The position numbers and the translations under genes were made by a program. The notes under the pieces were generated by a model. The model was not told where the DNA came from. It made no database searches and saw nothing but the letters and a program-made list of their open reading frames with translations. This document shows positions 3,655 to 47,052 of a stretch of DNA of 64,000 nucleotides, one piece after another (positions within the stretch are counted from its first letter, which is position 1; each line of letters opens with the position of its first letter). Source of the DNA: an uncultured Bacteroidota bacterium (GTDB lineage Bacteria; Bacteroidota; Bacteroidia; Chitinophagales; LD1). The DNA lies in NCBI GenBank assembly GCA_903861145.1, contig CAIOTH010000134.1, forward strand, positions 12,969-76,968, in the 5' to 3' direction.

Positions 3655-6243
3655 ATGAAGTTGAACCTCTACTTGTTACTCGCTTTTATTTCCTTGTCTT
3701 TTAGCGCATTTTCTCAAAATGCCAAAGTTAGTGGCAAAGTAACCGAAGACAACGGAGATGGATTAATAAGCGCCAGTGTTGTAATTGATGCAAGCAAAGG
3801 ATTTGGAGCCGTAACCGATATAGACGGCAATTACACCATCAGCCTTCCTGCCGGGTCCTATACCGTAACATTTACCTACCTGGGCAAAGAAACCCAAAAA
3901 GTAAATGTAACCCTTACCGATGGGCAAACTAAAACCCTAAACGTGGTTTTGCACGAAAAGCAAAAGCTGATGGATGATGTGGTAATTAGCGGTAGCAAAT
4001 ACGAACAAAAACTAAGCGAGCAAACCATTAGTATGGATGTGATTAAGGGTAGCTCACTTGCAAAAGATAACATTGTAAGCCTTGACGAAGGTATGAACAA
4101 AGTACCCGGTGTTACCATTGCCGATGGCCAGGTAAATATACGTGGTGGTGCCGGTTGGAGTTACGGCGCTGGTTCGCGCGTGCAGGTATTGGTAGATGAC
4201 CTGCCTATTTTAAGTGCCGATGCTGCCGATGCCAAATGGAGCATAGTACCCATGGAAAACGTTGAGCAGGTAGAAGTTATTAAAGGTGCCGCCTCGGCGT
4301 TATACGGCTCGGGTGCTTTAGATGGAATTATTAACGTGCGCACTGCATACCCTACCGATGTGCCTTACTTTAAAGTTTCAGCTTATGGTGGAATTGATGA
4401 AAGCCCTACCCGCACACCCGATATGAGTGACTGGTGGAACGGAAAACCACCCTATAGCCAGGGCATCAATTTTGCATATCGCCAAAAATTCGGGCAAAAC
4501 GATTTACAAATTGGTGGCGCTTTTGATGGTGGAACCGGCTATGTCGACTCAAGCGGCGGGTACCAAGTACGGGCCAATGTAAAGTATCGCCATCGCTTTA
4601 AAAAGATCCCCGGCTTAAACATGGGCGTTAATGTAAGCGGTCTATACGATTGGGGTAAAACCTTCTTTTTCTGGAATGGACTGGGTGACAAGGCTTACAG
4701 GCCTTTCCCTAACACCGTTACCATTTATCGCGATTACCGTTTTACAGTTGACCCTTTTATTGATTACTATGATAAAAACAATAACCAGTTTAAGTTTATA
4801 GGCCGTTTCTTAAACTCAACTAACACCAATAGCACCGGTCAGGGTTCTGTGCCAAATAAGTACTACGCCGAAATTCAATACCATCGTAAATGGGACTTTA
4901 ATAAGTTTACTATGAACCTGGTTTCGGGTGTTGTTAACCAATACGATGATGTAAACGCGCCACCGGGTAACCACGGAAGCCTTTTTGGAAAAAATAATGA
5001 TGAAAATTTCTCTATATATGCACAAACAGATTTTAAATTCTTTAAAAAACTAACCGTTAGTGTGGGTGCCCGTTGGGAATATTTTTACATGAGGCATTAT
5101 GTTAGCGATACTACCGGCGAAACCATCAGTGGCACCGATACAACGTTCGCTACCACCCAAAAATTACAACTTGCTCAAAACTCGCTTAAGCAATTATATT
5201 ACCCGCTATTCCGTATAGGCCTAAACTACCAGGCTGCCGAAGCTACCTTTATTCGCGCTTCATTCGGCCAGGGCTTCCGTTACCCAAGTATTGCCGAGCG
5301 TTATGTTACTACCAATGTGGGTGCGCTCACTATTGCCTCAAACCCACAGTTACAACCCGAGCAGGGTTATAGTGCCGAAATTGGTATAAAGCAAGGGTTT
5401 AAAATTGGTAGTTGGACCGGCTTTGCCGATTTATCGGGCTTCGCCAACTTCTATACCAACATGACTGAATTTTCGTTTGGCCAATTTGGCCCTCAGTCCG
5501 AATGGAACAACTACAATAAGGAATTTGGATTTGGCTTTGCCTCGCAAAACATTGGTAAAACAAGAATATTGGGTACTGAACTTGTTTTAGCCACTCAAGG
5601 CAATGTAGGTCCTGTTCTTATGGAGATAATGACCGGGTATACCTTTATTGACCCACGCTCATTAAACTGGAACGATTCCTTAGCGCTTTATAACTACCAG
5701 GGCTACCAGCTTTCCAGTCCCGTGGTTGATCCAAATAACCTCTCTCCTATTTCGCGGGCTTATAACCAGGCTAACCGGGCTAATCCGGCTTCCTCCGAAA
5801 TTACCTATGCCCAAACATCAACAAGCTCAACCAATCTCCTTAAATACCGCAGCCCACACACATTAAAAGTAGATATTACAGCTAGCTGGAAAGGGCTTGA
5901 ATTAAATACCAACCTGCAATACTCCAGCTACCAAAAAAATATCGATTTTGCTTTTATAAGCCCTCTTTTCCGCTTTAATGAGGGAACAGCCTTTCAGGGT
6001 TTATATCAATGGCGTTCTGCTAAAGAGGCTATTCCTATAGGCATGGGTCGTGGAGATATCATCTGGAATGCACGCATAGGATACTCATTTAAACAAGGCG
6101 TTAAAATTGCCCTATTGGTTAAAAACCTGTTGAATTGGGAATATACCCCGCGCCCTGCCTATTTTGGCGAGCCGCGCAATTTTACGCTTCAGGTATCATA
6201 CACTATGCAGCCTCCTAAAAAGAAGAAAAAAGTAAGCGAATAG
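3655..6243 (+). CDS. TonB-dependent receptor (carboxypeptidase-regulatory-like N-domain, plug, beta-barrel)
   Basis: Signal peptide MKLNLYLLLAFISLSFSAFSQ, then SGKVTEDNGDGLISASVVI...DGNYTISLPAGSYTVTFTYLG (CarboxypepD_reg), a plug (VEVIKGAASALYGSGALDGIINV) and a C-terminal barrel ending NFTLQVSY. Start moved from the track TTG at 3631 to the ATG at 3655, because 3626-3633 is a TAnnTTTG promoter box. Confidence 0.9.
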   Translation: MKLNLYLLLAFISLSFSAFSQNAKVSGKVTEDNGDGLISASVVIDASKGFGAVTDIDGNYTISLPAGSYTVTFTYLGKETQKVNVTLTDGQTKTLNVVLHEKQKLMDDVVISGSKYEQKLSEQTISMDVIKGSSLAKDNIVSLDEGMNKVPGVTIADGQVNIRGGAGWSYGAGSRVQVLVDDLPILSADAADAKWSIVPMENVEQVEVIKGAASALYGSGALDGIINVRTAYPTDVPYFKVSAYGGIDESPTRTPDMSDWWNGKPPYSQGINFAYRQKFGQNDLQIGGAFDGGTGYVDSSGGYQVRANVKYRHRFKKIPGLNMGVNVSGLYDWGKTFFFWNGLGDKAYRPFPNTVTIYRDYRFTVDPFIDYYDKNNNQFKFIGRFLNSTNTNSTGQGSVPNKYYAEIQYHRKWDFNKFTMNLVSGVVNQYDDVNAPPGNHGSLFGKNNDENFSIYAQTDFKFFKKLTVSVGARWEYFYMRHYVSDTTGETISGTDTTFATTQKLQLAQNSLKQLYYPLFRIGLNYQAAEATFIRASFGQGFRYPSIAERYVTTNVGALTIASNPQLQPEQGYSAEIGIKQGFKIGSWTGFADLSGFANFYTNMTEFSFGQFGPQSEWNNYNKEFGFGFASQNIGKTRILGTELVLATQGNVGPVLMEIMTGYTFIDPRSLNWNDSLALYNYQGYQLSSPVVDPNNLSPISRAYNQANRANPASSEITYAQTSTSSTNLLKYRSPHTLKVDITASWKGLELNTNLQYSSYQKNIDFAFISPLFRFNEGTAFQGLYQWRSAKEAIPIGMGRGDIIWNARIGYSFKQGVKIALLVKNLLNWEYTPRPAYFGEPRNFTLQVSYTMQPPKKKKKVSE

Positions 6244-6284
6244 TTTAGAAACAAGAATTGAAGAAAAATTCAAACCAAGCAAAA

Positions 6285-12581: not shown

Positions 12582-12656
12582 GTATTTTGTTTAAGCAGAA
12601 CGAAAGTAATATTCTGCCATGAATAGCCAAATAATTTTCAGCCTTGGGCTATGGGC

Positions 12657-12689
12657 AAAAAAAAAGAGGCCGCTATTTTGCGACCTCCC
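12657..12689 (-). terminator. rho-independent terminator (zinc-finger mini-gene)
   Basis: On the minus strand, the hairpin gaggtcgc-aaaata-gcggcctc (one mismatch) is followed by TTTTTTTTT. Confidence 0.7.
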
Positions 12690-12735
12690 CTTTAACCCAA
12701 TGCTCTGCTGACACTATTTTATTAAAAAGAATAAT

Positions 12736-12948
12736 TTAATCCCAATCTCCCTCATGTGTGGGGCAAAGGTTTCCGTGGCCTTTACATGGTTTGCATTCGG
12801 CATCTCGAAACTGCCCGCTGCCTTTGCACATGCCACATTCTCTTAATCCATGGCCGCACCAATAGCAATATGCACGTTTTGCAGTAATCATTACACTTAA
12901 CTGTAGTATCTTTTTTGCGGTATATCCTTGTGGTGCATTTGCTTTCAT
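12736..12948 (-). CDS. small DnaJ-type zinc-finger protein
   Basis: 70-aa ORF with CYWCGHG, CGMCKGSG and CKPCKGHG (CxxCxGxG-type repeats). A rho-independent terminator lies downstream at 12657-12689. Confidence 0.55.
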   Translation of the reverse strand: MKANAPQGYTAKKILQLSVMITAKRAYCYWCGHGLRECGMCKGSGQFRDAECKPCKGHGNLCPTHEGDWD

Positions 12949-13030
12949 TTTACCGTATTTATACTGTTATGGATATAATATCGAACCTATTAATTTGGTA
13001 GTGCAAAGATGCTTAACCAGTTGCCTGGTA

Positions 13031-13251
13031 CGTTACACAATTCCTAAAAGGAGTTACACAATTCCCACATATTGCAATTTAACAAAAGATAAAGCCGCTT
13101 CAATACCAGTTGCTAAAAGACATCGCTCACCTGCAACATTCGCCGTTATAGCAAAGTTCATTCCATCCTGGTAAATAATCCATAACCCAATGCTTGCATA
13201 GCAAGTGTTTTAAGTGGGAATTGTGTAACTCCTTTAAAGAATTATGTAACG
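13031..13251. repeat. 38-bp imperfect inverted repeat pair (13031-13068 / 13214-13251) flanking a 145-bp segment
   Basis: The left arm is cgttacacaattcctaaaaggagttacacaattcccac. The reverse complement of the right arm is cgttacataattctttaaaggagttacacaattcccac (35/38 identical). Each arm carries two copies of GTTACA(C/T)AATTC spaced 20 bp apart. Confidence 0.9.
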
Positions 13252-13312
13252 CATGCGCTTATAAAGGCATCAACTTTACATGGTGAAGGTTATTCACAAA
13301 TAAAAAACAGAA

Positions 13313-42803: not shown

Positions 42804-42917
42804 TCTCATACCACAAACCCCGGCACCATAAAACTCTATTAGCGGACTACTATTTTAAACCCTATCTTTATAAAACAGGGTTTATGTAATTATTTTTAAA
42901 TATCTAAACGCCGTAAT

Positions 42918-45236
42918 ATGAAAAAAATATTCTCCCCGATTTTTTGTTGCCTGTTGTTGAGTTTGTCGTGTTTCAGTCAATCTATTAACTGGGAGTGGGC
43001 CGTGGCTACCAGCAATACTAATGGCCAACAAGAAGGCTACGATGTTACCACAGATAGCACTGGTAACGTTTATATAACAGGAAGCTTTAACGGAACCACC
43101 ATAAACTTTGGCAGTACCATACTAAACAACGGAGGAACTACAAATGGCTTTTTGGCCAAATATTCTACCGATGGAAATGTGATTTGGGCAGTAAGCCCCA
43201 CCACCAATATCGGCGATGTAGTTGAACCTACCCATATTGCAATTGACGGCGAGGCCAACGTTTATATCGCCGGTACATACTTCGGTACTGGCGTGGTATA
43301 TGAAACCACCGTTTTACCGGCTACGTTTCCAAATAGTTCTAATGCTTTTGTTGCGAAATACGATTCGTTGGGTGGCCTTATTTGGGTAAGAACTGCCGGA
43401 ATTAATAGCTACGCCGCTGCTACCGGGGTTGCCACTGATATGGGCGGCAATGTTTATGTAACGGGATATTTTCAGAACGATTCAATAAACTTTGATAATA
43501 TAATTTTACACAACTATCTCAACAACCCATCGCACTATTCTGTATTTGTAGTAAAATACGACTCGCTGGGGCAAGTGGTTTGGGCAAAAAGCCCGAGGGC
43601 GCTCTCGAGCCAAGCTGTGGCCGCCAGCAGGGGTATTGTGACCGACCTGGCGGGTAACGCTTATGTTACCGGCTATTACTCCGATTCTATCAGGTTTGGC
43701 AATACTACTTTACACGCTGTAGGTTCGGCCAATACCTTTCTAGCGAAATACGATGGCCAGGGCAATGTAGGCTGGGCCAAAAGTGCGGGCTTTCAGGATG
43801 ACTTACCGTTTGGTATTGCCACCGATGGTAACAGCCACGTTTATATTACGGGAGATTTTTCGAGCACTTATACTTATTTCGATACTATAAAGTTGACTAA
43901 TACCACCCCCAACGGACAGCGAGACGCATTATTTATTACCCAATATGATACCGCGGGTAACGCCATTTGGGCCAAAACGGCTGGCGCTCAATTAACCACC
44001 ATCGGTTATGGCCTTGCTACAGATGGTTGCGGCAATGTTTATTGCACAGGTGGGTTTGCGGGGCCATCTATTACTTTCGATACTTTTGCTATGGCCCCTA
44101 CCAGTGGTATTGCCGACGCACTATACCTGGTTGAGTTTAGTCCAGCCGGCAAACTTATTAGTGCAGGGGTATTGGGAAGCGGCGGCGATGACCAAAGTGG
44201 TATCCACATCGATTCAAAGGGCAATTCGTACCTAATTAGTGATTTTGAAAACCTGAATCCATTTGTGGTAGGTAATGATTCGTTAGTTTTAAGCGGCGGA
44301 GAAACTGTTTTCCTTGCCAAGTTTAGCTGCACGGCGTGTTCGCAAGATAGTTTAGGTTACAATTTGCTGTTGCCCGCAATTTGCAAGGGAGACATAGCCG
44401 TGCTTAATTTTACAGGGGGCTCGGGAATTAACGTTTCGCCATTAAGTGATGTTTTCCTCATCAATACCCAACAAGCCTGGCTGGATCCTGATACTACCAC
44501 GGTTTTTACCATTACCGGTTACCAATATTGCGATGATTATGTTAGGCAAACGTTTACGGTGCCGGTATTAGATAGCAACGGAATTAGCATTAACGCCAGC
44601 AACCCGGGTCTTTGCCCCAACGATTCGGCGCAGTTGTGCGTTCCATCTGGGTTTTCAACTTATAACTGGAGCACCGGTGATAGTACGGCCTGCATTCATG
44701 TACATAACGGCGGGAATTATAGCATAACAATTACCAATATAGGGCAGTGCTCAGCAACCGGTAGCCACGCTATTATTAGCTATGAAACGGCAGCCTTTAA
44801 CGTAAGCCAACAGGGTGATACCCTGTCATATTCCACCGGTAGTAACTACCGATGGTTGCTAGATGGCGACACCATTGCCGGAGCTACTTCATCCGCTTAT
44901 ATTACACATGCCGCTGGTACATATATTCTACAAATTACAGATTCGAATGGATGTACGGAGACTTCAAATCCTGTGGTTATTTTGGGAGTTAGTGACATAA
45001 CCGACCGCAACATTACGGTTTATCCGAATCCATCAGCGGGTATTTGGCAACTGGATTTAGATAATAATTTGCCGGGAGGCGTGGCCGAAGTGTTTGATGC
45101 CGAAGGGCACCTGGTTTTTAAAACAGAAATTAAAGCCAGGCAATCTGAAATAGGTATTAATGCCGCCAGCGGGATTTATATTTTGCGCATAACTTCAGTA
45201 GGTGTAACTGTTGTGAGGAAGCTGGTTAGAATGTAA
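42918..45236 (+). CDS. SBBP (beta-propeller) repeat protein with T9SS C-terminal sorting domain
   Basis: Repeated D..GN.Y(I/V)TG.F......F blocks (SBBP type) and a C-terminal ITVYPNPSAGIWQLDL...SGIYILRITSVGVTVVRKLVRM. Confidence 0.85.
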   Translation: MKKIFSPIFCCLLLSLSCFSQSINWEWAVATSNTNGQQEGYDVTTDSTGNVYITGSFNGTTINFGSTILNNGGTTNGFLAKYSTDGNVIWAVSPTTNIGDVVEPTHIAIDGEANVYIAGTYFGTGVVYETTVLPATFPNSSNAFVAKYDSLGGLIWVRTAGINSYAAATGVATDMGGNVYVTGYFQNDSINFDNIILHNYLNNPSHYSVFVVKYDSLGQVVWAKSPRALSSQAVAASRGIVTDLAGNAYVTGYYSDSIRFGNTTLHAVGSANTFLAKYDGQGNVGWAKSAGFQDDLPFGIATDGNSHVYITGDFSSTYTYFDTIKLTNTTPNGQRDALFITQYDTAGNAIWAKTAGAQLTTIGYGLATDGCGNVYCTGGFAGPSITFDTFAMAPTSGIADALYLVEFSPAGKLISAGVLGSGGDDQSGIHIDSKGNSYLISDFENLNPFVVGNDSLVLSGGETVFLAKFSCTACSQDSLGYNLLLPAICKGDIAVLNFTGGSGINVSPLSDVFLINTQQAWLDPDTTTVFTITGYQYCDDYVRQTFTVPVLDSNGISINASNPGLCPNDSAQLCVPSGFSTYNWSTGDSTACIHVHNGGNYSITITNIGQCSATGSHAIISYETAAFNVSQQGDTLSYSTGSNYRWLLDGDTIAGATSSAYITHAAGTYILQITDSNGCTETSNPVVILGVSDITDRNITVYPNPSAGIWQLDLDNNLPGGVAEVFDAEGHLVFKTEIKARQSEIGINAASGIYILRITSVGVTVVRKLVRM

Positions 45237-45470
45237 AAGCGTAGTGCAGATCGACCGGCGAGAACAGGAAGCCGGCAATGAACAGCTGGCCATTCTCATC
45301 TGTCTTCTACATCTTCTCTCTCAACAATACTTATCCCCACCCCATTGCAGTAATTAAAAGTGTAACTACCTTTGTTACTATATTACGAAATAACAAAATT
45401 GTATTTTAAGCGTTTTGCTGTTTTGTCTCCGTTCTTTGACATGAGGAATTTCTGTTTTCGGGCTAGGTCA

Positions 45471-45501
45471 GCTTTGACAACTTTTAAAAAGTTGTCAAAG
45501 C
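45471..45501. repeat. perfect 31-bp palindrome
   Basis: gctttgacaactttt-a-aaaagttgtcaaagc. All 15 position pairs were checked by hand and are complementary. The word CTTTGACA also occurs at 45434-45441. Confidence 0.95.
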
Positions 45502-45833
45502 ATGTTATGGTTGAGAACGGTTGAAAAACAACGTTCAGAAACCTGTATATATTATTCAAAAACAAAATAACTAAAGACACCTTTCAACAAATTGAACATC
45601 AACAAGTTGCGAAATATAGGTTTGGAAAAGGTTTAAAAAAGTTTAGAGATTTTGCGGGACTAAAGGCCTTAAAGTAATACTTTAAGTGCGGCTATATTAG
45701 CAGGCTTGTGCAGGACAAAAAAGGTAACAAAAAGGTTACAGTTTTTTTGATTGCAGAGGCAATTGTCTGAACTGTGATTTATTTGATTTTTATGATTGCT
45801 GTGATTGCATTTGAGTGCCAGGTGCCGGGCATC

Positions 45834-45873
45834 TTTAAAAACAAAAATCCCCGCCATAGGGCGAGGATTTTTT
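45834..45873 (-). terminator. rho-independent terminator (rpoD)
   Basis: On the minus strand, the hairpin aaaaatcctcgcc-ctat-ggcggggattttt is followed by GTTTTT. Confidence 0.75.
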
Positions 45874-45936
45874 AGGTGGTGGAATTGCGGTGTTGTTTAT
45901 CCTAAAGCAGGTGCCTTGCAGCACGCTGTATTTTTG

Positions 45937-46794
45937 CTATTGTATGTAAGCCTGTAGTAAATGCGGGCTGGTACTTTCTTTTAACTGGCGTATGCACTTT
46001 TCTTTTATCTGGCGCACACGCTCGCGGGTTAAATCAAAACGATCGCCTATTTCTTCCAAGGTCATTGGTATTTTACCATTCAAGCCGAAGTATGAGCTGA
46101 TGATTTCTGATTCTCTTTCGGTAAGGCCGGCGAGGGCTGTGTTTAATTGGCTCTCTACGGTTTTGTGCATCAATTGGTCTTCGGCTGATACTGCAGTGCT
46201 ATCGCTTAACACATCGCTTAGCGAGTCGTCCATATCACCCATTTTAAAATCGGTAGATAAGGTGTGGGTGTTTACGCGGAAGTATTCGTCAATTTCTTCT
46301 TTGGTCATGCCCAGCATTTCCATCAACTCTTCAACATCGGGCTCGCGCTGGTATTCTTGTTCGAATGAGTGGAATGCTTTGGTAATTTTAGTGTAGGCGC
46401 CTACCTTACTAACCGGTAAACGTATAATGCGCGATTGTTCTACAATGGCCTGCATAATTGCCTGGCGAATCCACCACACTGCGTAGCTAATAAATTTAAA
46501 GCCGCGGGTTTCGTCAAATTTATGGGTAGCACGTATTAATCCTAAATTTCCTTCGTTAATTAAATCGCTTAAAGGCAGTCCTTGATTTTGATATTGTTTG
46601 GCCACGCTAACCACAAAACGCAAATTGCCTTTTACCATGGCTTCAAGCGCGTCGCTATCGCCCATGCGTATTTTTTTGGCTAATACAGCTTCGTCTTCGG
46701 CACTGAGGAGTTCGTTTTTCGAAATCTCACTCATATACTTATCCACCTGGCTATCTCTCTGCGAAATGTTATGGGTAATTTTTAGGGGCCTCAT
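45937..46794 (-). CDS. rpoD: primary RNA polymerase sigma factor (Bacteroidota short RpoD/SigA)
   Basis: MRPLKITHNISQRDSQVDKYMSEI N-terminus, region 2 (NLRFVVSVAKQYQNQGLPLSDLINEGNLGLI.A...FD...GFKFISYAVWWIRQAI) and region 4 (TLEEIGDRFDLTRERVRQIKEKCIRQL). The ATG at 46794 gives 286 aa. Confidence 0.92.
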   Translation of the reverse strand: MRPLKITHNISQRDSQVDKYMSEISKNELLSAEDEAVLAKKIRMGDSDALEAMVKGNLRFVVSVAKQYQNQGLPLSDLINEGNLGLIRATHKFDETRGFKFISYAVWWIRQAIMQAIVEQSRIIRLPVSKVGAYTKITKAFHSFEQEYQREPDVEELMEMLGMTKEEIDEYFRVNTHTLSTDFKMGDMDDSLSDVLSDSTAVSAEDQLMHKTVESQLNTALAGLTERESEIISSYFGLNGKIPMTLEEIGDRFDLTRERVRQIKEKCIRQLKESTSPHLLQAYIQ

Positions 46795-47052
46795 AATGGG
46801 TGTTTTTGTTTTCAGGAACTTGTTTCCTACAAACATTTACGCCTAAATCACTGTAAATGTTACACCGCCCCCCACGGAAAACCGTGTATGACTATTGTCA
46901 TGTTAACTAAAAATAGTGTATAAATAATTGATAGTCAACACTATAAAAACAAGATAAATGCGTGACTTTTGTAACAACCTTACTATTTCTGCTTTGCTAT
47001 ATACACCAACAAAGGTGTTTTGCCCTACGATTAATGACTGAATGAGGCTTAT

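Follow-up and report, generated by a model that had tools for sequence, protein, structure and literature searches.

A modular non-coding locus beside rpoD in an uncultured Chitinophagales bacterium, a candidate for lineage-specific small RNA genes

The closest described counterparts of the locus reported here are intergenic, trans-acting small RNAs (sRNAs) of Bacteroidota, such as Rfp18 of Flavobacterium psychrophilum (PMC9723704) and GibS of Bacteroides thetaiotaomicron (PMC7366714). We analysed a 64-kb stretch of DNA (the window) from an uncultured member of the Chitinophagales, and our favoured, though tentative, reading of the segment at 45326-45878 is that of a lineage-restricted modular non-coding locus which would most likely comprise one or two plus-strand ncRNA genes. 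The lineage-specific intergenic sRNAs already listed for Flavobacterium and Bacteroides (PMC9723704, PMC7366714) are elements of a similar kind. Like Rfp18 and GibS, the locus is intergenic, has a sigma-A -7 box of the TAnnTTTG type and an intrinsic terminator, is confined to a narrow lineage, and contains a predicted single-stranded stretch that could pair with mRNAs. Unlike these two RNAs, the predicted transcript is larger (up to ~500 nt) and is built from repeat modules, and no secondary structure was supported for it. No similarity to any described sRNA was found, and there was no match in Rfam. The element is known from few uncultured Chitinophagales, and a probable, uncharacterised regulatory RNA gene is its most likely identity.

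The locus lies between two convergent genes. A plus-strand SBBP/Por_Secre_tail gene (772 aa, a T9SS cargo) ends at 45236, and the minus-strand rpoD gene, encoding the primary sigma factor (sigma-70), has its stop codon at 45937-45939; pnp and rpsO are found upstream of rpoD in the window. Since rpoD homologues are 285 aa in length, the true start of rpoD is probably at 46794 rather than at 46836. A sequence-only reading of this DNA had described about 600 AT-rich bp without a convincing ORF between the two gene ends, and had considered such a distance unusual for convergent genes. This description was borne out, as the two ends are 700 bp apart with no conserved ORF between them, while the other 12 of the 13 convergent pairs in a crude gene map of the window are separated by -32 to 75 bp, and G+C is 31-35% in the gap core compared to 42% for the window. 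An imperfect hairpin followed by a C/T-rich run was predicted by folding at 45260-45297 on the plus strand, 24 nt past the SBBP stop codon. It is possibly the 3' end of the SBBP mRNA and lies outside the conserved element; this stretch could not be aligned with the gap of a close relative, L149 (54% identity when the alignment was forced), where the upstream gene differs. At the opposite end, the minus-strand sequence at 45874-45936 is the 3' UTR of rpoD, a part of that gene and also outside the element, and the 3' UTR and terminator together show 84-85% identity in L149 and in a second relative, L082.

Closer variants of rpoD were drawn from its 90% cluster, and a search of genome contigs with rpoD yielded relatives at 52-57% identity among the matches listed. 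Contigs of the same species (L081, L088 and L092) were identical across the gap, and hence uninformative. The rpoD of L149 differs at 3 residues from that in the window and is followed by a 643-bp gap. Alignment to L149 defined a conserved promoter block at 45326-45443 on the plus strand, which we call block A. It contains a -33 TTG (45345-45347), 19 nt before a -7 box, TACCTTTG (45367-45374), that agrees exactly with the Bacteroidota sigma-A box, and it ends in TTTGACATG (45435-45443), which is common to the window and L149. The sigma-A box of Flavobacterium spans positions -12 to -5 (PMC9723704), and transcription from block A is therefore predicted to start near 45379, with ~65 nt of conserved sequence downstream of the start. 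Outside the gap, ~15 of the 18 intergenic exact TAnnTTTG boxes in the window sit 7-104 nt upstream of a start codon on the same strand, and boxes within genes are about as frequent as base composition predicts; going by their positions, the intergenic exact boxes of the window are mostly real-looking promoters. In silico, block A appears to have a housekeeping-sigma promoter of its own, as an independent sRNA gene would.

The conservation of block A was compared with that of the neighbouring genes. Positions 45326-45401 are 94.7% identical to L149 6407-6332 over 76 nt (72/76, E = 1e-28), and the promoter itself (TTG, 19 nt and TACCTTTG; 45345-45374) is identical. As a neutral yardstick, 115 of the 411 four-fold degenerate sites of rpoD and pnp differ between the window and L149 (28%; ~72% identity). 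The 95% identity of block A against ~72% at neutral sites indicates that, on this comparison, it is either under constraint or very recent, and that neutral drift is excluded. The pnp-rpoD intergenic region, which contains the rpoD promoter region, is 93% identical to L149, and block A is equally conserved. The remaining extension of block A (45402-45443 against L149 6331-6296) is ~67% identical, with 1 of 500 shuffles aligning equally well.

Blocks A and B (the second module, described below) are kept in L149 in the same order and orientation despite different upstream genes, the far side of the L149 gap being occupied by genes of 232 aa and 226 aa and a DUF4397-T9SS gene, followed by the 3' end of a kinase gene. 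L149 has ~150 extra nt after block B, and it carries a duplicated copy of the 50-nt kinase 3' end. In L151-L153 (rpoD 97% identical) the gap is 242 bp long and contains no blocks, and the gene after the kinase orthologue encodes a DUF4397 protein. In L082/L090 (rpoD 95%), L083 (92%), L091 (89%) and L084 (87%), the rpsO-pnp-rpoD order is kept, the downstream genes differ, and similarity to the window ends just past the terminator, at ~45832; L082 also lacks block A. The element is thus dispensable, and its absence at this position from L151 and, as far as block A is concerned, from L082 counts against an RNA gene. The content between the kinase gene and rpoD varies across the relatives (the SBBP gene, a DUF4397 gene, the 226- and 232-aa genes, or a 936-aa gene), and this difference in every relative, together with the duplicated kinase 3' end in L149, points to frequent rearrangement here. 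Two L082 genes of 487 aa and 936 aa were considered as SBBP orthologues and rejected. A metagenome search with the kinase protein recovered a sister contig with an SBBP orthologue (L096), which ends 325 bp into the SBBP gene. According to the sequence-only reading, conservation limited to the flanking genes would be the mark of decayed DNA. That pattern is seen in L151 and L082, whereas L149 and L093, a second locus, carry the element; random decay is not borne out, given that blocks A and B are kept in L149, although the rest of the gap is unalignable.

The L093 locus was found when a profile of block A was run over 1.29 Mb of collected loci (L093 1536-1424, nhmmer E = 1.9e-5). This third copy of block A, which has an imperfect -7 box (TACTTTCG), is located in L093/L094/L095, where a 248-aa gene and a DUF885 gene converge on a gap of 1585 bp that is free of genes. 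Downstream of it, on the same strand, are B modules lying inside a 228-bp tandem duplication, ATTGTCTGAAC, five GATT words, a GC-rich stretch of ~200 nt, and an intrinsic terminator that is predicted to work on the element strand only. The order A, B, C, GATT matches that in the window, with no coding sequence, and no Rfam families were found in the L093 gap. Conserved modules are therefore seen in a fixed order and orientation, A and B at L149 and A, B, C and GATT at L093. For blocks A and B, conservation in L149 exceeds the neutral level independently of the flanking genes, as would be expected of an sRNA gene, and L093 holds a homologue. The sample sets that yielded the window species also yielded the L093/L094/L095 contigs, which have a tetranucleotide correlation of 0.92 and may or may not belong to one genome with the window.

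The 3' part of the element begins with block C (45751-45779, plus strand), a predicted stem-loop whose 3' arm contains ATTGTCTGAAC (45762-45772). Window positions 45733-45779 are 72% identical to L093 887-847 over 47 nt (E = 0.003), and among the collected loci ATTGTCTGAAC was found only in those of the window species and in L093/L094, where two copies stand as the 18-nt arms of an inverted repeat, 85 nt apart. Next come four TGATT words with an exact 9-nt period (45775-45806, plus strand; words at 45775, 45784, 45793 and 45802; period 9 by TRF), and a fifth copy at 45748 lies outside the 9-nt series. Nowhere else on either strand of the 64 kb are at least four TGATT found within 65 nt; the five copies at 45748-45806 had been overlooked in the sequence-only reading. 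In L093, GATT is found at 850, 842, 834, 825 and 819, 6-9 nt apart. On the plus strand the TGATT stretch is G/U-rich and is predicted to be mostly unpaired, and a small GC hairpin lies between it and the terminator.

The terminator itself (45843-45873) is a bidirectional intrinsic terminator common with rpoD, with a 13-bp stem that is preceded by A5 and followed by T6 (45868-45873) on the plus strand. The stem is kept in L082, L149 and L151, and the T6 would give plus-strand transcripts a clean tail in the window, with a poor U-tail in L149. An intrinsic terminator on the same strand, another feature of sRNA genes, is thus predicted in the window (stem 45843-45867 and T6) and in L093, and is weak in L149. 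As in bidirectional terminators between convergent genes, one hairpin with an A-run and a T-run would serve both strands. Unlike ordinary shared terminators, the partner on the plus strand is not a protein gene, the SBBP end being ~600 bp upstream.

In keeping with the view that the gap holds no known RNA family, a search with 4227 Rfam models gave no matches at the gathering threshold across the whole window, and searches of relatives yielded no real match either. The best sub-threshold match was to GcvB (RF00022) at 45715-45875 on the plus strand (22.8 bits compared to a gathering threshold of 42, E = 0.011), and the other matches obtained in E-value mode were terminator look-alikes. GcvB is a gammaproteobacterial, Hfq-dependent sRNA encoded beside gcvA. 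The locus is similar to GcvB in that a small hairpin and a terminator come after a G/U-rich unpaired stretch. It differs in that the R1/R2 and five-stem architecture of GcvB was not found, and neither the gcvA nor the Hfq context applies at this locus. Membership in this family was rejected, as the score is far below threshold, the alignment contains large unaligned insertions, and only the terminator and the U/G-rich run align. A likeness of another sort is to CsrB/RsmZ (GGA) and to the trp leader ((G/U)AG, TRAP), in that four to five UGAUU words follow one another at regular intervals, with the motif constant from copy to copy, the spacers divergent and the number of repeats variable. The motif differs from those of the known systems and no cognate protein is encoded nearby, so that this is a resemblance only.

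We considered a mechanism in which RNA polymerase would start near 45379 and produce an RNA of up to ~500 nt, stopping at the T6 tail. Block B may provide a second, activator-dependent promoter, a possibility raised by its spacing from a real gene in L082, which would suit a promoter. The RNA from this promoter would be ~125 nt long (roughly 45753-45878) and would consist of the block C hairpin, the UGAUU repeats, the small GC hairpin and the terminator. In either transcript, the UGAUU stretch would be the working surface, which may pair with A-rich translation start regions or bind a protein. 

RNA folding was also evaluated. Fold z-scores were ordinary for 45751-45880 (-0.66), for the conserved 5' part (-0.9) and for its L149 counterpart (+1.4). 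The gap as a whole was more structured than shuffled sequences on both strands (z = -3.5 and -5.5, 20 shuffles each), largely because of its many hairpins. RNAalifold predicted no pairs for the block A transcripts when two sequences were used; with three, it gave 12 weak pairs (-2.8 kcal/mol), among which there was one compensatory change, from only two to three independent copies. A consensus RNA structure for block A was not supported, and no covariation was found in these alignments. A pairing of AAAUAACAAA with UUUGACAU is proposed as a candidate 5' stem.

The lack of support for RNA structure is one of the points that favour the main rival to an RNA gene, namely that the gap contains regulatory or relic DNA. 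The modules would then be promoter and transcription factor sites left behind by a lost plus-strand gene, or would still function as DNA sites (response-regulator repeats, curved A-tracts), with any transcripts as by-products. This is possible, and we consider it the less probable of the two. Much of the argument concerns block B (45717-45749, plus strand), which reads A6-GGTAAC-A5-GGTTAC-AG-T7-G followed by a degenerate -7-like box, TTTTTTTG. It is a direct repeat with an 11-bp period (TRF) and the unit A5-6-GGTWAC (11 bp). Positions 45717-45747 are 90% identical to L149 6232-6203 over 31 nt. L093 has at least two B modules, and L149 and L093 are 80% identical over 65 nt (E = 2e-11). When the 1.29 Mb of collected loci were scanned with a regular expression for the B motif, A3+-G[GT]T[TA]AC-N3-6-G[GT]T[TA]AC, its matches were confined to these gaps, apart from a single one in L082/L090. 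The L082/L090 copy precedes the ATG of a 936-aa T9SS cargo gene by ~80-110 nt, and in those relatives this gene takes up exactly the present place beside the rpoD terminator. The changing gene content between the kinase gene and rpoD in every relative favours the same explanation.

Sites of the OmpR/PhoB type are made up of 6-7-bp direct repeats with a 10-11-bp period. Block B has this shape: as in the Pho box and other activator-dependent promoters, two 6-7-bp repeats stand right upstream of a -7-like box, and in L082 they are at promoter distance. Unlike at such sites, no gene follows block B in the window, in L149 or in L093. With its 10-11-bp direct repeats, its phased A-tracts and its location upstream of the L082 gene, block B would pass for a DNA site at least as readily as for an RNA feature. 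The palindrome of this gap (see below) was rejected as a widespread operator when a scan of viral sequences with a 9-nt spacer gave 6 unrelated contexts, and in a viral scan for the tandem B decamer, which found 31 contigs, the match was limited to the tandem decamer itself.

The possibility that the gap is a relic is more difficult to reconcile with the data. The 95% identity of block A would be unexpected in a relic while the surrounding sequence was being replaced. No translated similarity was seen to the 936-aa gene or to any neighbour, and a pseudogene remnant was rejected when six-frame tblastn against the collected loci and the window found nothing. Similarity to sequence downstream of the 936-aa gene was insignificant (172 of 300 shuffles scored as well), and L093 has the modules in the same order, ending at a terminator of their own and without a gene. 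We therefore ranked an RNA gene, itself a tentative assignment, above DNA modules.

It is improbable, in our view, that the locus was assembled from small, non-autonomous MITE- or REP-like elements (mobile or repetitive) spreading among intergenic sites, and that it owes its conservation to recent copying. The modules are indeed present at two or more unrelated loci, with block B alone at a third, and internal duplications have occurred, as seen from the 228-bp tandem in L093 and from a further repeat, B', beside block B in the window. In L149, inspection showed block B to be bracketed by a 14-nt direct repeat, GTTGAAAGGCAGAT. Against copying, only one copy was found in the 64-kb window, the copies at different loci are only ~70% identical, the unit as a whole is not bordered by terminal inverted repeats or target duplications, and the modules keep their order and orientation. 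Collections of phages and plasmids contained no similar sequence, and a phage or plasmid origin was rejected; a MITE or other mobile element was rejected on this ground and on the first two given above. An origin or terminus of replication (oriC, dif) was also discarded, as DnaA boxes do not cluster (one with 1 mismatch in the gap, and 17 in the window compared to 18.6 expected) and GC skew was uniformly negative over the 64 kb, with no switch.

Between blocks A and B, a segment at 45444-45716 has no counterpart in L149 (273 nt in the window vs 63 nt in L149). Several features that had been picked out from the sequence were confirmed. A perfect 31-bp palindrome (45471-45501) is unique in the window and was matched in 0 of 100 shuffles; three CTTTGACA words, all within 45434-45500, are the only copies in the window; and a 7-bp hairpin is present at 45668-45686, inside the 273-nt segment. 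Tandem-repeat analysis identified B' (about 45618-45653), an 11-nt tandem repeat containing a second TAnnTTTG box, TAGGTTTG, at 45617. That box is the first unit of the repeat, which the sequence-only reading had overlooked. B' is 79% identical to block B, and one arm of the palindrome, AAAAAGTTGTCAAAG, matches a B unit of L093, AAAAAGTTTACAAAG, in 13 of 15 positions. We read both the palindrome and B' as later internal duplications of B-like units.

The same reading had proposed a different transcript, an sRNA of 115-125 nt running from the 45617 box to a 5-bp GUAAC/GUUAC hairpin followed by T7 (45724-45748), which we regard as still less probable than mobile elements. Both TAnnTTTG boxes it had named, at 45367 and 45617, are exact, the latter with a TTG 22 nt upstream, compared to 19 nt for the former. 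The hairpin and T7 are present, and outline a weak terminator (z = -2.7 for the 43-nt piece). However, the box and most of the RNA fall within the 273 nt that are absent from L149, the box is a unit of the AGGTTTNNNNN tandem repeat, and the conserved promoter is that at 45367. The hairpin arms correspond to a direct repeat (GGTTAC-N4-GGTTAC or GTTTAC-N5-GTTTAC) in L149, L082 and L093, and so there is no conserved terminator stem in these relatives. The proposed transcript (45632-45750) folds no better than shuffles (z = -1.3), and it has no Rfam match. Thus, the suggestion of a small RNA in the gap held to the extent that there is functional non-coding content (blocks A and B are conserved above neutral and have a homologue at an unrelated locus), and was not borne out for the proposed RNA itself.

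Coding capacity in the gap was assessed as well. The two weak minus-strand ORFs of 62 aa and 65 aa that had been reported exist, and the 62-aa ORF is annotated by gene callers in public assemblies; its start falls within the terminator stem. A plus-strand ORF of 33 aa (45774-45875) has a hydrophobic N-terminus and crosses the terminator stem. No Pfam domain was detected in the ORFs of the gap or in any of its six frames, and no tRNA or tmRNA genes were found. The 62-aa ORF had no homologues, being a singleton among 5.8 billion proteins, and no real homologues of the small ORFs were found among the 5.8 billion proteins or among 1.8 billion representatives; the sole match to the 65-aa ORF was a repetitive low-complexity protein, and P0242 was judged a low-complexity artefact. 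A peptide after TTTGACATG is 27 aa long in the window and 8 aa in L149, and is absent in L093. In a 21-aa minus-strand ORF, 4 of 4 substitutions were non-synonymous by inspection. On these comparisons, the small ORFs that cross the conserved parts are not conserved. The least probable explanation, that one or more small proteins are encoded, can be set aside in spite of the existing ORFs, the annotation of the 62-aa ORF and the hydrophobic N-terminus of the 33-aa ORF, given the absence of homologues and Pfam domains, the overlap of the 62-aa ORF start and of the 33-aa ORF with the terminator stem, the GATT spacing of 8, 8, 9 and 6 nt in L093 that breaks the reading frame, and the fact that the hydrophobicity follows from the U-rich repeat.

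We return to the RNA-gene reading. Its boldest form, to which we give little credence, is that the locus could represent a new family of modular repeat RNAs in Chitinophagales, in which (UGAUUN4)n would titrate an RNA-binding protein as a counterpart of CsrB/RsmZ, and a response regulator acting on the GGTTAC repeats would switch expression. To our knowledge, CsrA is absent from Bacteroidota. What appears to be new here is a candidate RNA family, or non-coding element, whose known range is very narrow; its construction from repeated modules and its periodic UGAUU platform are unusual. Next to rpoD there is a hotspot where one T9SS cargo gene is exchanged for another while the flanks stay conserved. 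If no transcripts are made, the locus would mark a family of conserved promoter/operator modules and the scar of a lost gene. We know of almost nothing about regulatory RNAs in Bacteroidota beyond Bacteroides and Flavobacterium, and of nothing in uncultured Chitinophagales. With a conserved promoter without a gene, a UGAUU platform and a bidirectional terminator, this locus is a concrete candidate, and its three independent copies can seed a wider search for homologues.

The open reading frame called mechanically for rpoD in the window (45937-46836) encodes 299 amino acids, as against 285-288 in all close homologues, and for this reason translation probably begins at the ATG at 46794. Comparison of the window with two further contigs, L088 (from the same species) and L089, revealed a pair of 1-nt differences, one a deletion and one an insertion (46057 and 46061), along with three substitutions in the 3' part of rpoD, which may stem from the assembly or from a difference between strains. 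Relatives at a greater distance (rpoD 87-92%) have in common a conserved motif in the rpoD 3' UTR, ATGGAAGCGTCCTTCAATCTCGGTTCCAATAGAAA, placed directly before the terminator. The region containing it lies downstream of rpoD at 4925-4965 in L083 and 4952-4990 in L084, and is also seen in L139; the motif is absent from the window. Within the L083/L139 lineage, the contigs long enough to cover this part (L083, L139 and L140) end close to an inverted repeat, about 280 bp past rpoD.

The window has another large gap without genes, of 731 bp, at 12582-13312 between divergent genes, and no similarity to block A (the conserved predicted-promoter block) or block B (the direct-repeat module with an 11-bp period) was found in it using nhmmer. 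Across the whole 64 kb (1-64000), there were no tRNA genes and no Rfam matches at the gathering threshold. Two additional features were observed in L093, the contig that carries another copy of block A in a separate gene-free gap. The first, on the minus strand (540-760), consists of about 200 nt of GC-rich sequence located between the GATT-repeat hairpin and the strand-specific terminator. It contains several strong hairpins, for example GGAGCGUCCCGAUAGCUAUCGGGAGCG, and the 351 nt surrounding it gave a folding z of -3.7; the stretch had neither an Rfam match nor a convincing ORF, and has no counterpart in the window. The second is an ORF of 109 aa on the plus strand (1525-1854) that begins with GTG, is divergent from the block A copy and overlaps the first 12 nt of that copy. 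No Pfam domain was detected in this ORF, and it has no counterpart in the window or in L149, the relative whose rpoD differs at 3 residues.

In L149, block B is flanked by a perfect 14-nt direct repeat, GTTGAAAGGCAGAT, with a spacing of about 90 nt (6181-6276, minus strand), which could mark a duplication or insertion junction. Tandem AAAAG(G/T)TTAC decamers, in 2-4 copies, were also seen in 31 viral contigs from IMG/VR (L154-L184), several of which have two copies about 680-790 nt apart. Around 11 of these contigs form one group with identical flanks, and are 90-220 kb where the length is known. The match to block B is limited to the decamer tandem, which may be either a regulatory motif in DNA that has recurred or a simple repeat that arose by chance.

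Comparison of the window (42805-45325) with L149 (6408-10198) and L151 (6101-8097) shows that the DNA from the GAF-HisKA kinase stop codon as far as block A, or as far as the rpoD terminator, is a cassette that can be replaced. It contains the SBBP gene in the window, a DUF4397-T9SS gene in L151, and a DUF4397 gene with genes for 226-aa and 232-aa proteins in L149; in L082, a 936-aa BNR/PKD T9SS gene adjoins rpoD. A 50-nt duplicate (86%) of the kinase 3' end is found between the cassette genes of L149 (8077-8126), and this suggests recombination at that site.
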